DNA from: a virus
Reading direction: 5' to 3' (one strand)
DNA: 32,207 bases
Virus genome (UHGV): UHGV-1442421
This document shows, piece after piece, positions 23,022 to 26,590 of this stretch (position 1 is the first letter of the stretch; each line of letters opens with the position of its first letter). The notes below the pieces were generated by a model that was given only the letters and a program-made list of their open reading frames with translations, searched no databases and was not told where the DNA came from. Both the position numbers and the translations under genes were made by a program.

Positions 23022-24374
<1,353 letters not shown>

Positions 24375-24423
24375 TCCCCACCTCAATCTCGATAACCAAA
24401 AACAAACTATTTTTCATTTAAAA

Positions 24424-24496
24424 ACAATGGAGTTTGTTTTTCACGCCCCTTTTTACAATATTTCTTGTTTACAACATACAATCTTTCTTGTAATTT
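24424..24496 (+). promoter_or_regulatory. Left operator OL3-OL2-OL1 (434-type) with PL (-35 TTTACA, -10 TAATTT)
   Basis: ACAATGGAGTTTGT (24424..24437), ACAATATTTCTTGT (24455..24468), ACAATCTTTCTTGT (24478..24491); 17-bp promoter spacing. Confidence 0.65.
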
Positions 24497-24535
24497 TAAG
24501 CCATCAGCAGGACGCACTGACCACCATGAAGGTGA

Positions 24536-24566
24536 TGCTCTTAAAAATTAAGCCCTGAAGAAGGGC
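24536..24566 (+). promoter_or_regulatory. nutL (boxA TGCTCTTAA, boxB GCCCTGAAGAAGGGC)
   Basis: Read directly upstream of N; boxB is a perfect stem with GAAGA loop. Confidence 0.7.
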
Positions 24567-24676
24567 AGCATTCAAAGCAGAAGGCTTTGAGTAGCGCGAA
24601 ATGCAGCTGCAAGACAGCAACCGTGGAGATAAGCATCACGGCGCGTTACTCAAAGCTAACTGACAGGAGAATCCAG

Positions 24677-25009
24677 ATGGATGCACAAACACGCCGCCGC
24701 GAACGTCGCGCAGAGAAACAGGCTCAATGGAAAGCAGCAAATCCCCTGTTGGTTGGGGTAAGCGCAAAACCAGTTAACCGCCCTATTCTCTCGCTGAATC
24801 GCAAACCGAAATCACGAGTAGAAAGCGCACTGAATCCGATAGACCTTACAGTGCTGGCTGAATACCACGAACAGATTGAAAGCAACCTGCAACGTATTGA
24901 ACGCAAGAATCAGCGCACATGGTACAGCAAGCCACGCAGTGAAATGGGTGTGACATGCTCAGGCCGCCAGAAGCGACGCGGAAAATCAATTCCAGCTTAT
25001 TACGATTGA
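24677..25009 (+). CDS. N: Antiterminator N, lambda type (110 aa from ATG at 24677)
   Basis: Arg-rich N-terminus MDAQTRRRERRAEKQAQWKAANPLLVGV recognised as lambda N; SD AGGAGA; ORF-track upstream extension rejected. Confidence 0.9.
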   Translation: MDAQTRRRERRAEKQAQWKAANPLLVGVSAKPVNRPILSLNRKPKSRVESALNPIDLTVLAEYHEQIESNLQRIERKNQRTWYSKPRSEMGVTCSGRQKRRGKSIPAYYD

Positions 25010-25017
25010 GGTGAGCC

Positions 25018-25182
25018 ATGCTCAAGAAAGTCAAACGCCGACTTTACAAAGAAGGTAGATATTCATGCCAATTGCCAAAATGCGACACAACAAAATGGAG
25101 TGTCGATGATTGGTGTAACTGGATAGATAGATACGGAACTTGGTGGGAACGTATTTATTTTCGCGGCAAACCACTTATTTGA
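25018..25182 (+). CDS. Hypothetical small basic Cys/Trp-rich protein (54 aa; below ORF-track cutoff)
   Basis: Hand-translated MLKKVKRRLYKEGRYSCQLPKCDTTKWSVDDWCNWIDRYGTWWERIYFRGKPLI; SD GAGGTGA. Confidence 0.4.
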   Translation: MLKKVKRRLYKEGRYSCQLPKCDTTKWSVDDWCNWIDRYGTWWERIYFRGKPLI

Positions 25183-25190
25183 GGTGAGAT

Positions 25191-25442
25191 ATGGAATTTC
25201 ATGAAAGTGCGATTTGTGATTTTCGCGCTAACGCAAATTCAGTAAAACCACAGCCAATTGCAGTTCTTTTTAAAACAATGGGTGCGTGTGCTGTTTTATG
25301 CTTCGCCGCTGATGACACTGACGCAAGAATGGCAATAGGCCAAGAGATGGAGATGGACCCGACAAACGATGAATTCATAGTTTATGGCGCTCCATCTAAT
25401 TACTTACTTGATACCTGCAACATTTACAACAAGGCTGCCTGA
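25191..25442 (+). CDS. Hypothetical protein (83 aa)
   Basis: ORF track; SD GAGGTGAG 3 nt upstream. Confidence 0.5.
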   Translation: MEFHESAICDFRANANSVKPQPIAVLFKTMGACAVLCFAADDTDARMAIGQEMEMDPTNDEFIVYGAPSNYLLDTCNIYNKAA

Positions 25443-25481
25443 TGGTGGCCTTTATTTTTGGCATAAACAACAGAGGCTAAC

Positions 25482-25778
25482 ATGGAATTTAAAGGTACTG
25501 AAGGTAAGTGGGAAATAATGATGGATGGCGATGAGATTAAAATCATCCAGGCAGACTCTCTTGAAAATGGCACTGGCTGGCGTTCGTATATTGCAATCTG
25601 TGAGGAAGTTCAATGCATTGAAGATGCCAATCTAATAGCGGCAGCGCCTGACCTTCTCGAAGCACTTCAGTTATTACTTAAGCAAACCAAAAATAGAACA
25701 ACGACAACATATCCAGAATGGTATGGAGCTGTTAATAAAGGTATCGCAGCAATCAGAAAAGCTCTTGGGGATAAGTAA
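25482..25778 (+). CDS. Hypothetical protein (98 aa)
   Basis: ORF track; SD AGAGG 5 nt upstream. Confidence 0.5.
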   Translation: MEFKGTEGKWEIMMDGDEIKIIQADSLENGTGWRSYIAICEEVQCIEDANLIAAAPDLLEALQLLLKQTKNRTTTTYPEWYGAVNKGIAAIRKALGDK

Positions 25779-25966
25779 TGAAAGTAAAAATAACTGCTTC
25801 TAATACCAGTTTTGTTAGTGTTGGTGATATTACAGAAGTAATAACAAACCATGATGGAACACAAGTTATGTGGTCTGATTTTTGTAAAAGATATGAGCGA
25901 GTCACTTGGTGTAAACTCGTATGGGGAGTCGAATACGAAGAATTACCTGAAATGCATGACGAATAA
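25778..25966 (+). CDS. Hypothetical protein (62 aa)
   Basis: ORF track; start overlaps the previous stop (TAATG). Confidence 0.45.
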   Translation: MKVKITASNTSFVSVGDITEVITNHDGTQVMWSDFCKRYERVTWCKLVWGVEYEELPEMHDE

Positions 25967-26061
25967 GCACTGTGTATTCATTCCAACGAGTGAATACACG
26001 GAGCAATGTTGCTCGTAACTAAACAGGAGCCGACTTGTTCTGATTATTGGAAATCTTCTTT

Positions 26062-26087
26062 GCCCTCCAGTGTGAGGGCTTTTTTAT
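26062..26087 (+). terminator. Intrinsic terminator downstream of the post-N cassette
   Basis: GCCCTC-CAGTGT-GAGGGC followed by TTTTTTAT. Confidence 0.55.
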
Positions 26088-26151
26088 ATGCATACCAATA
26101 ACGCTTCACTCGAGGCGTTTTCGTTATGCAATCAAATATAAGGAGTTACCC

Positions 26152-26286
26152 ATGATGCACTTTCAGCTCGCGGGTAGCGGCGTCATGTCCGCTTTCTACC
26201 CGCACGAATCTGAATTATCACGCCGAGTTAAACAATTAATCAGAGCAGCAAAGAAACAACTGGAGGCGTTATGCGCAATGAAATAG
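26152..26286 (+). CDS. cIII: CIII-like protease inhibitor (44 aa from ATG at 26152)
   Basis: SD AGGAG; amphipathic core ESELSRRVKQLIRAAKKQL resembles lambda/HK022 CIII; ORF-track upstream extension rejected. Confidence 0.55.
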   Translation: MMHFQLAGSGVMSAFYPHESELSRRVKQLIRAAKKQLEALCAMK

Positions 26287-26423
26287 CCATTAATCACCAG
26301 ATGCTTCGTGCTGCACAGAACAAAGCAGTAATAGCCAGATTTATTGGTGATTCAAAAATGTGGCTTGAAGCAAATAAAGCGATGAAATCAGCTATCAACC
26401 TTCCGTGGTATCGCAGGAAATGA
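26271..26423 (+). CDS. Kil-like small protein (50 aa; below ORF-track cutoff)
   Basis: SD GGAGG; motif IARFIGDSKMW similar to lambda Kil as I recall it; overlaps cIII stop. Confidence 0.4.
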   Translation: MRNEIAINHQMLRAAQNKAVIARFIGDSKMWLEANKAMKSAINLPWYRRK

Positions 26424-26590
26424 GTTTTACAGATAACTGGTCAGACGAAGAATTCATTCGTCAGATGAAAGAATTAATCGGTAACGAAGGAGATATTCAT
26501 GTCACTTGCAACCACAGTGAAGGAGAGCAAGTTACAGAGACGCATGTACACGCAGCAGGCGTTAATGTATCGCCAGAAGGGAGATCGTGA
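26420..26590 (+). CDS. Hypothetical small acidic protein (56 aa from ATG at 26420)
   Basis: ATG overlaps kil-like stop (ATGA); ORF-track frame. Confidence 0.35.
   Translation: MSFTDNWSDEEFIRQMKELIGNEGDIHVTCNHSEGEQVTETHVHAAGVNVSPEGRS

Follow-up and report, generated by a model that had tools for sequence, protein, structure and literature searches.

Four small, independently assorting genes in the variable N-to-cIII interval of a lambda/P22-like pL operon

The closest described counterpart of the locus considered here is the N-cIII interval of phage lambda, which holds sieB, orf28, ral, tL2a and ea10. Ral, a PF11058 protein found in lambda, P22 and Sf6, acts on type I restriction-modification, and SieB is an inner-membrane protein of ~190 aa. 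The edges of exchangeable segments in such phages carry short 'boundary sequences' (bsq in the annotation of Sf6). Silas et al. (2023; bioRxiv 10.1101/2023.04.06.535777) described this slot as the 'Ral' accessory region, the second-highest scoring in their study, and placed orf184 (AFM76385.1), the trigger of the gop-beta-cII abortive system and of cell death, in the accessory region that it has in common with ral.

We analysed a viral DNA of 32,207 nt, referred to below as the window, and drew a mosaic map of it against lambda, Sf6, SfI and HK633. The window has the same anchors as lambda (pL/nutL/N on one side, cIII/kil on the other), the same strand and the same combinatorial content, and two lambda boundaries (the hairpin-bearing 3' end of ral, and the tL2a segment) recur in it at 94-97% identity. 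In contrast, it has none of lambda's own ral, orf28, sieB and ea10; four other ORFs (ORF1-ORF4) stand in their place and together make up a rare combination. The slot thus shows what defines an accessory region, with conserved N/cIII anchors, variable content and the counter-defence gene ral among the alternatives. In our reading, which we consider probable, this is the variable part of a lambda/P22-like prophage pL operon, filled by four independent single-gene accessory modules and not by one system. The features, all on the + strand, are as follows:

24424..24491, +, OL/pL control region with three 434-type operators (ACAA-N6-TTGT, found by regular expression) at 24424, 24455 and 24478
24552..24566, +, nutL boxB hairpin (GCCCTGAAGAAGGGC), by similarity to the lambda nutL segment
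24677..25009, +, antiterminator N, 110 aa (Pfam N36, 1.3e-26; 92% DNA identity to lambda N)
25006..25015, +, stop-plus-SD junction TTGAGGTGAG, copy 1 (N/ORF1), an exact 10-mer present only here and at 25179
25018..25182, +, ORF1, 54 aa, basic (pI 9.7), 6.8 kDa, DUF5484 (Pfam PF17583, 3e-12; phrog_1871, 1.7e-22)
25179..25188, +, stop-plus-SD junction TTGAGGTGAG, copy 2 (ORF1/ORF2), exact 10-mer, a piece of a relic N 3' end
25191..25442, +, ORF2, 83 aa, acidic (pI 4.2), phrog_2471, in the orf28-ral position
25426..25474, +, boundary segment common to lambda (34055-34103, ral's last 17 nt and downstream), 94% identity
25482..25778, +, ORF3, 98 aa, acidic, phrog_1273/PF27050, with motifs EFKGTxGxW, LIAAAPDLLEAL and AISKALG
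25778..25966, +, ORF4, 62 aa, acidic, phrog_10407, start overlapping the ORF3 stop (TAATG)
25967..26090, +, lambdoid boundary sequence (Sf6 'bsq4') ending in a tL2a-homologous intrinsic terminator
26100..26119, +, third terminator-like hairpin, in the cIII leader common to lambda (-9.9 kcal/mol)
26152..26286, +, cIII, 44 aa, downstream anchor of the variable slot (Pfam cIII, 2e-30)
26271-26423, same strand as the four ORFs, kil

The four ORFs (54, 83, 98 and 62 aa) span 25018-25966 on the + strand between N and cIII, exactly as an earlier note on this DNA described them; that note took them for an AT-rich cassette in the ral/sieB slot of lambda and a candidate for an unrecognised anti-restriction or host-takeover module. 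The base composition agrees (40.3% GC for the four-ORF region against 48.4% for the whole window), and an SD-like sequence lies 5' of each ATG (GAGGTGA for ORF1 and ORF2, AGAGG for ORF3, GGGGA for ORF4). The overlapping start and stop signals it described are real at the ORF3/ORF4 border only, the remaining gaps being 8 nt (N-ORF1), 8 nt (ORF1-ORF2) and 39 nt (ORF2-ORF3). Its assignment to the lambda slot holds, with anchors and boundary sequences shared between the two. Positions 24400-24589 match a segment that Sf6 labels OL/PL at 99.5% identity, and positions 24502-24589 are 98.9% identical to lambda 35496-35583, the home of the annotated nutL.

The terminator that the note placed at the end of the set is present at 26062-26087 (GCCCTC-CAGTGT-GAGGGC followed by T6; -11.1 kcal/mol). 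It ends a 124-nt segment (25967-26090) whose identity is 96.8% with lambda 33920-34045 and 97.5% with Sf6, where the tL2a-homologous segment is labelled 'tL2A', and judged by this alignment the hairpin is the homologue of lambda tL2a. The set is thus closed by a terminator, as the note said, but two further terminator-like hairpins were overlooked. One, equally strong, lies mid-set after ORF2 (25431-25452; -13.9 kcal/mol), overlaps the ORF2 stop codon and is followed by a T-tract, and mEp234 has an annotated terminator at its position; the other, at 26100-26119, lies in a stretch (26090-26128) with 97.5% identity to lambda 33483-33522. An Rfam scan of 24300-26500 (E<=1) gave no match to a phage sRNA, AgvB, AsxR or the cIII thermometer, and we therefore dropped the possibility that a known sRNA lies in the conserved tL2a boundary segment. 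The module edges are short conserved junctions that also occur in lambda, Sf6 and numerous prophages. They comprise TTGAGGTGAG, the 3' end of ral together with its hairpin, an ALG(D/G)(K/E)-stop-ATG junction, and bsq4 plus tL2a. All coincide with the boundary sequences of lambdoid annotation and represent the same phenomenon, without any difference.

By analogy with lambda, we expect the four genes to be silent in an uninduced lysogen through cI repression of pL, whereas after induction or infection N-modified RNA polymerase would pass the hairpins and yield delayed-early proteins. These would be dispensable small soluble products, one basic (6.8 kDa) and three acidic (7-11 kDa). It is unlikely that the genes are instead expressed from the prophage as moron-like defence or superinfection-exclusion genes that protect the lysogen, as sieB is. 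Lambda does have sieB in this interval, defence genes are frequent in the variable slots of prophages, and ORF2 and the pair ORF3-ORF4 have terminator-like hairpins at their flanks, as would be expected of autonomous morons; but a consensus scan of 24222-26426, itself weak evidence, gave no sigma-70-like promoter on the + strand, with promoter-like counts overall at chance level, and starts are coupled to the stop codon of the gene upstream. The proteins also have no PADLOC match and, unlike SieB, are small, mostly acidic and devoid of clear membrane segments, with a borderline case in ORF2 only. Finally, homologues of ORF1 and ORF4 are carried by strictly virulent phages of the T4 type, which fits portable accessory genes.

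ORF1 belongs to DUF5484, scoring 46.5 bits against PF17583 (gathering cut-off 27) over profile positions 3-41 of 43. Its residues 1-43 are ~96% identical to Sf6 gp36 (DUF5484, phrog_1871) and ~50% identical to T-even gp55.4 of RB69 and RB51, the motif PKxDTTKWSVxDW being invariant and present in ORF1, and in Sf6 and SfI the DUF5484 gene likewise directly follows N. ORF1 differs from these relatives by an 11-residue C-terminal tail (residues 44-54), the product of a 19-nt deletion that took out the ancestral stop codon and left the conserved core (residues 1-43) unaffected. The gene forms an insertion after N, bordered by a duplicated N 3' end with the stop-plus-SD element. The earlier note had suggested metal binding for this first product, yet the three cysteines C17, C22 and C33 are replaced by L, G and I in gp55.4 of RB69 and RB51, and the family has no invariant Cys or His, which makes a metal site unlikely. 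A word-indexed homologue search returned only six near-identical clusters, too shallow for structure prediction. RefSeq leaves the gene without annotation at its E. coli genome matches, and our literature search on DUF5484, gp55.4, ydaF, XkdD and the protein accessions found no functional data. YdaF of the Rac prophage is presumably another DUF5484 member.

Because each of the four ORFs matches a PHROG family (1.7e-22 to 2.6e-59) and dN/dS against homologues is low (0.09 for ORF1, 0.39 for ORF2, 0.18 for ORF3 and 0.23 for ORF4), we judge all of them to be real genes under purifying selection. The same values, together with intact reading frames whose length does not vary between genera, make it quite unlikely that at least one ORF is non-functional filler, a decaying or chance frame caught between conserved recombination junctions. 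Such a view could draw on the lost ORF1 stop codon, past which the frame runs into relic sequence, on the missing RefSeq annotation of ORF1, on the absence of any reported phenotype for screened homologues, and on ORF2, whose copy in the window has a cysteine (C33) at the position of the family's near-invariant W. Against it, the ORF1 core is intact and the long variant also occurs in CurroJimenez_Bas106, an isolated and viable phage.

ORF2 matches phrog_2471 over its full length (2.6e-59; 1-83 of 83) and, judging from its placement, is the positional alternative of orf28-ral. Of the 74 loci that contain ORF3 and extend far enough upstream, 16 have ORF2, 17 have ral and none has the two together (P=0.0086); both genes stop at an identical offset, 42 nt before ORF3. 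They also have an NKAA end and the downstream hairpin in common. This might suggest a divergent Ral, a possibility that we rejected: the NKAA ends agree because the recombination junction lies within the last codons, and the two proteins lack sequence similarity, with no alignment to lambda Ral by BLASTP at E<=100. ORF2 is acidic and without the Cys-rich N-terminus of Ral. The statement that none of the four products resembles Ral or SieB therefore stands, as Pfam, NCBIfam and PADLOC gave nothing for either; a Pfam scan at E<=1 did not find PF11058 in the four ORFs, and SieB has no Pfam, PHROG or PADLOC match among them, all being <=98 aa. A hydrophobic stretch in ORF2 is borderline (Kyte-Doolittle 19-residue mean of 1.86, residues 22-40), and a membrane role may be considered for this protein.

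ORF3 matches phrog_1273 over its full length (4.8e-31) and has 163 homologue clusters, with nearly all of the 120 listed carrying a PF27050.1 match; its membership of PF27050 is taken from these precomputed matches of homologues and not from direct scoring. Certain RefSeq members of PF27050/phrog_1273 are named 'XkdD/Y8K6 family phage-associated protein'. An AlphaFold2 model of ORF3 (pLDDT 73) has three strands and a helical hairpin. The family profile found nothing below E 0.5 among PDB sequences, and a Foldseek search with the model gave a best PDB E-value of 0.68 and BFVD matches to uncharacterised phage proteins throughout, the best at 1.2e-4. ORF4 matches phrog_10407 (1.5e-45; 1-62 of 62, full length), a small family with 14 representatives in an exhaustive HMMER search, three of them low-complexity or repeat false positives, and no informative relatives. 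In 55 loci with ORF4, the gene before it is a member of the ORF3 family in 39 cases and an unrelated ORF of 44 aa in 13. Aligned with lambda, ORF3 and ORF4 together form an insertion into the ral-tL2a spacer.

Comparison of the slot across 135 related loci, the swapping comparison that the earlier note had proposed, revealed that single genes are exchanged independently: each of the four is present, absent or replaced in relatives irrespective of the others, and they do not form a four-gene cassette. An unbroken run of all four was seen in just 2 of 5426 E. coli genomes and in 2 of 80 IMG/VR loci. ORF4 comes after ORF3 in 27 of 78 loci, 12 of 74 have ORF1, and the 35 complete N-to-cIII intervals have 29 different gene orders. 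Every on/off combination of the four genes occurs except ORF1 plus ORF2 without ORF4; ORF3 frequently comes after ral, whether or not ORF4 is present too, and ORF4 is also found without ORF3. Other occupants of the slot are Ral, orf184 (cluster C9) and an Nmad5 protein, and none of the 80 related loci gave a match in a tblastn search with lambda SieB. The orf184 product, an alternative occupant between N and ORF3, is small and acidic like ORF2-ORF4, but its sequence is unrelated to the four ORFs and the gop-beta-cII trigger phenotype belongs to orf184. That one co-adapted anti-restriction or host-takeover cassette has replaced ral and sieB as a unit is very improbable, for although the genes follow closely on one another on a single strand, have coupled starts, lie in the ral slot with ORF2 excluding ral, and include an ORF2-ORF3-ORF4 trio that recurs in several E. 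coli prophages, the independent assortment largely refutes it, a terminator-like hairpin and lambda-type boundary sequence divide the set after ORF2, and an EcoKI screen whose library held an ORF2 homologue and ORF3 relatives noted only other genes.

We thus return to four single-gene modules, whose products by analogy would most likely each bind a component of the host or of a defence system, like other genes known from this position; anti-defence or host takeover, as the earlier note proposed, is a reasonable class of function for such a slot. Profile and structure-based searches placed all four in families but gave no function from sequence, profile or, for ORF3, fold: in sequence and profile searches of Pfam, NCBIfam, PADLOC and the PDB, only ORF1 was assigned, to the uncharacterised DUF5484. 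Nor are the genes unrecognised. They are members of catalogued, uncharacterised phage families (PHROG/Pfam) in a known, published variable region and are not new, and some relatives have been screened already. The 200-gene library of Silas et al. held UDP0060, a homologue 98% identical to ORF2, as well as the ORF3 relatives UDP0110 and UDP0123, none of which is named as a hit among the accessory genes, and the notes on the pooled MG1655/lambda (EcoKI) screen give ardA, ral and ocr as the sole hits (bioRxiv 10.1101/2023.04.06.535777). Ral and the ORF2 homologue UDP0060 thus differ in that only the former is listed as a hit in that screen, and EcoKI is disfavoured as a counter-defence target of ORF2.

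Tentatively, one or more of the four proteins may represent a new factor for counter-defence or host takeover, directed at something other than EcoKI. ORF2, which replaces orf28-ral base for base, would be the best candidate for a counter-defence role, followed by ORF1 and ORF4, which occur in temperate lambdoids as well as in virulent phages of the T4 type. Under this reading, the N-to-cIII slot would amount to an existing catalogue of factors of this kind, with ORF2 as an alternative to Ral against a different defence system; should ORF2 or another of the four inhibit a defence system, this would add one more entry to the anti-defence catalogue and no new principle. As it stands, the locus is of little import beyond textbook lambdoid mosaicism at an accessory hotspot already recognised. 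Its practical value lies in a precise map of module edges, junction sequences and alternative occupants at each position, in which DUF5484 (gp55.4) and phrog_10407 stand out as uncharacterised families outside the screening carried out so far.

The four small ORFs between N and cIII (ORF1 to ORF4) are best read as four separate accessory genes of the pL operon, each dispensable and delayed-early. They lie in a P22/lambda-like prophage with its early-left operon on the + strand:

23341-23973: LexA-family repressor gene
23970-24374, +: small ORF coupled to the repressor gene, 134 aa, Sf6 gp38 homologue (phrog_2651, 5.6e-58, unknown function)
24424, 24455 and 24478: three 434-type operators
24552-24566: boxB, in a segment that follows the operators and matches the lambda pL start and nutL at 98.9% identity
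24677-25009, +: N (Pfam N36, 1.3e-26)
25018-25182, +: ORF1, 54 aa
25191-25442, +: ORF2, 83 aa
25431-25452: terminator-like hairpin across the ORF2 stop codon (-13.9 kcal/mol)
25482-25778, +: ORF3, 98 aa
25778-25966, +: ORF4, 62 aa
26062-26087: tL2a homologue, a clean hairpin with T6 (-11.1 kcal/mol)
26100-26119: further terminator-like hairpin (-9.9 kcal/mol)
26152-26286: cIII, downstream of ORF4
26271-26423: kil, after cIII

The earlier note had the positions and sizes of the four ORFs right, each preceded by a Shine-Dalgarno-like sequence, as well as the AT-rich composition (40.3% GC against 48.4% for the window) and the terminator at 26062-26087, to which the other two hairpins are now added.

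When the window was compared by BLASTN with lambda, Sf6, SfI, HK633 and others, the genes were found to be set between short lambda-like segments of 94-99% identity:

upstream of ORF1: pL/nutL and N
25426-25474: 49-nt piece, the last 17 nt of lambda ral and the hairpin after ral
25967-26090: 124-nt piece, the lambda ral-ea10 spacer, annotated in Sf6 as boundary sequence bsq4 and terminator tL2A
26090-26128: cIII leader

Because the 49-nt and 124-nt pieces adjoin in lambda, ORF3 and ORF4 are an insertion into the ral-ea10 spacer.

The earlier note had proposed a four-gene cassette, which is not supported. A single co-adapted unit is less likely than separate genes, since ORF1 to ORF4 assort independently in related loci; the region is a mosaic of independently assorting modules. 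In each of 80 IMG/VR loci with an ORF3 homologue, that gene lies on the operon strand between N and cIII; ORF4 follows it in 27 of 78. Enough upstream sequence was available in 74 loci. ORF1 follows N in 12 of these. Just upstream of ORF3, 16 have ORF2, 17 have ral, none has both and 41 have something else (hypergeometric probability of zero overlap, 0.0086); both ORF2 and ral end 42 nt short of ORF3. Seven of the eight possible on/off combinations of ORF1, ORF2 and ORF4 occur, the missing one being ORF1 and ORF2 without ORF4. The suggested check for cassette swapping found single genes varying separately, with 29 gene orders among 35 complete N-to-cIII intervals. The full arrangement is present in 2 of 5426 E. 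coli genomes, one of which has extra genes before cIII, and in no isolated phage. The slot, the variable N-to-cIII interval, is a set of alleles, position by position. Other occupants of the ORF2/ral position (IMG/VR loci L029 3339, L064 308, L041 3483 and others) include a 207-aa Nmad5 protein (Pfam 4e-70), the 107-aa orf184, a 156-aa protein, a DUF7446 protein and a 140-aa hydrophobic protein.

Expression of the four as exclusion genes from the prophage is also less likely, since the promoter scan found no + strand promoter-like sites inside the region. Given this, and the near-identity to lambda in pL, nutL, N and tL2a, we infer N-dependent transcription after induction: ORF1 to ORF4 would be silenced by repression in the lysogen, and N would then carry RNA polymerase through the three hairpins.

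That the ORFs are decaying filler is less likely in view of dN/dS values, against homologous DNA of related loci, of 0.09 (ORF1), 0.39 (ORF2), 0.18 (ORF3) and 0.23 (ORF4). Values of 0.12-0.14 apply to ORF3 relatives whose amino-acid identity is about 70%. The four ORFs are genes. Each matches over its full length a PHROG family annotated "unknown function": phrog_1871 (ORF1, 1.7e-22), phrog_2471 (ORF2, 2.6e-59), phrog_1273 (ORF3, 4.8e-31) and phrog_10407 (ORF4, 1.5e-45). ORF1 also matches Pfam DUF5484 above threshold and ORF3 homologues bear the newer Pfam family PF27050; searches of NCBIfam and PADLOC returned no match for any of the four. Near-identical DNA was counted in 145 (ORF1), 403 (ORF2), 160 (ORF3) and 94 (ORF4) of the 5426 complete E. 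coli genomes. Among the matches listed, E. coli RefSeq genomes have no feature annotated under the ORF1 DNA (25018-25182; compare locus L003 2860-3059), so that a conserved small phage protein, the gp55.4-like DUF5484, is missed there.

ORF1 is flanked by exact copies of TTGAGGTGAG, a stop codon plus Shine-Dalgarno sequence, at 25006 and 25179, the only two in the window, and the DNA 3' of it is a relic of an N 3' end: before the stop codon, N of the related locus L022 reads GSKPLI, lambda N KSIPLI and ORF1 RGKPLI. Relative to Sf6 and SfI gp36, a 19-nt deletion removed the native stop codon and fused the frame to the relic, giving a new 11-residue tail, ERIYFRGKPLI (25146-25182). This long variant is carried by the isolated phage CurroJimenez_Bas106 and, at a query coverage of at least 80%, by 16 of the 5426 E. 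coli genomes. The product is basic (pI 9.7); the metal-binding role suggested for it is unsupported, since RB69 and RB51 gp55.4 have L, G and I at the positions of its three cysteines, while K6, R7, L9, K11, G13, Y15 and the motif PKxDTTKWSVxDW are invariant. In virulent T4-type phages, the homologue of ORF1 is gp55.4 (RB69 43003-43137), which lies within the 55-nrdH accessory block.

ORF2 starts at the orf28 start codon of lambda-type phages and ends at the ral stop codon, hence the C-terminal NKAA common to ORF2 and Ral. Codon 33 (25287-25289) encodes Cys here and Trp in at least 90% of family members, and the function of this copy may be weakened. From the end of ORF2 across the hairpin to the start of ORF3 runs a 44-aa ORF in a different frame (25384-25518, +); it recurs in related loci (protein cluster C6) and is unlikely to be a gene, only tracking the conserved boundary.

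ORF3 (pI 4.7) has a variable middle; its conserved parts are EFKGTxGxW at the N-terminus, LIAAAPDLLEAL in the centre and AISKALG at the C-terminus. In the ORF3-family alignment A1, the same LIAAAPDLLEAL and AISKALG are joined to many different middle segments and to three or more mutually unrelated N-terminal beta-regions, which indicates recombination inside the gene. An AlphaFold2 model (pLDDT 73) predicts three strands and a helical hairpin; it had no significant match among PDB structures, and its BFVD matches were all uncharacterised phage proteins. With ORF4 as query, 39 of 55 loci have an ORF3-family member as the gene before ORF4, and 13 have an unrelated 44-aa ORF there instead (MNAVEFTKWMAEQDIT...ANALGGE; for example L092, L099, L102, 2367-2501). 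This ORF shares with ORF3 only the ALG(G/D)(E/K)-stop-ATG junction, which suggests that the conserved C-terminus of ORF3 serves in part as a recombination and ribosome-binding-site element. The very small ORF4 family (pI 4.8 for ORF4) also forms the C-terminal part of a 144-aa protein and occurs, as a domain match at 55-59% identity, in virulent RB49-like T4-type phages (Krischvirus genomes); isolated phages in the searched collection held no homologue above 60% identity.

Nor is the idea of an "unrecognised" module supported: beyond the PHROG families, the slot is already the "Ral" region, second by score in Supplementary File 2 among the phage accessory regions defined computationally by Silas et al. 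(bioRxiv 10.1101/2023.04.06.535777). Their 200-gene library includes UDP0060, 98% identical to ORF2; UDP0110 and UDP0123, ORF3 relatives (34% identity full-length, 50% in the C-terminal half); and UDP0184 (orf184; our protein cluster C9), one of the alternatives at the ORF2/ral position, which triggers the gop-beta-cII abortive system. The library gave no match to the ORF1 or ORF4 motifs, and orf60, orf110 and orf123 go unmentioned among the hits in both the preprint and its follow-up (PMC12373910). An EcoKI anti-restriction role is disfavoured for ORF2 and for the ORF3 family; the MG1655/lambda screen notes record only ardA, ral and ocr as hits (bioRxiv 10.1101/2023.04.06.535777). The window combines known, uncharacterised accessory gene families in a new way, within a slot already known to be hypervariable, and the overall interest of this is low. 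By analogy with the alternates Ral, orf184 and Nmad5, and given small size, charge and temperate-virulent portability, the proteins most likely work by binding host or defence components, and there is a modest chance that a new anti-defence factor is among them.

Two neighbouring ORFs deserve mention. A 31-aa ORF (26006-26101, +) runs across the tL2a hairpin, and its counterpart in phage Dewey is annotated as a CDS, Dewey_CDS0041; this call inside conserved boundary sequence is probably spurious. The Sf6 gp38 homologue, with a signal-peptide-like N-terminus, starts on the repressor stop codon (ATGA overlap) and takes the position of lambda rexAB; it is therefore probably co-expressed with the repressor in the lysogen and so a candidate for a secreted factor of exclusion or conversion.
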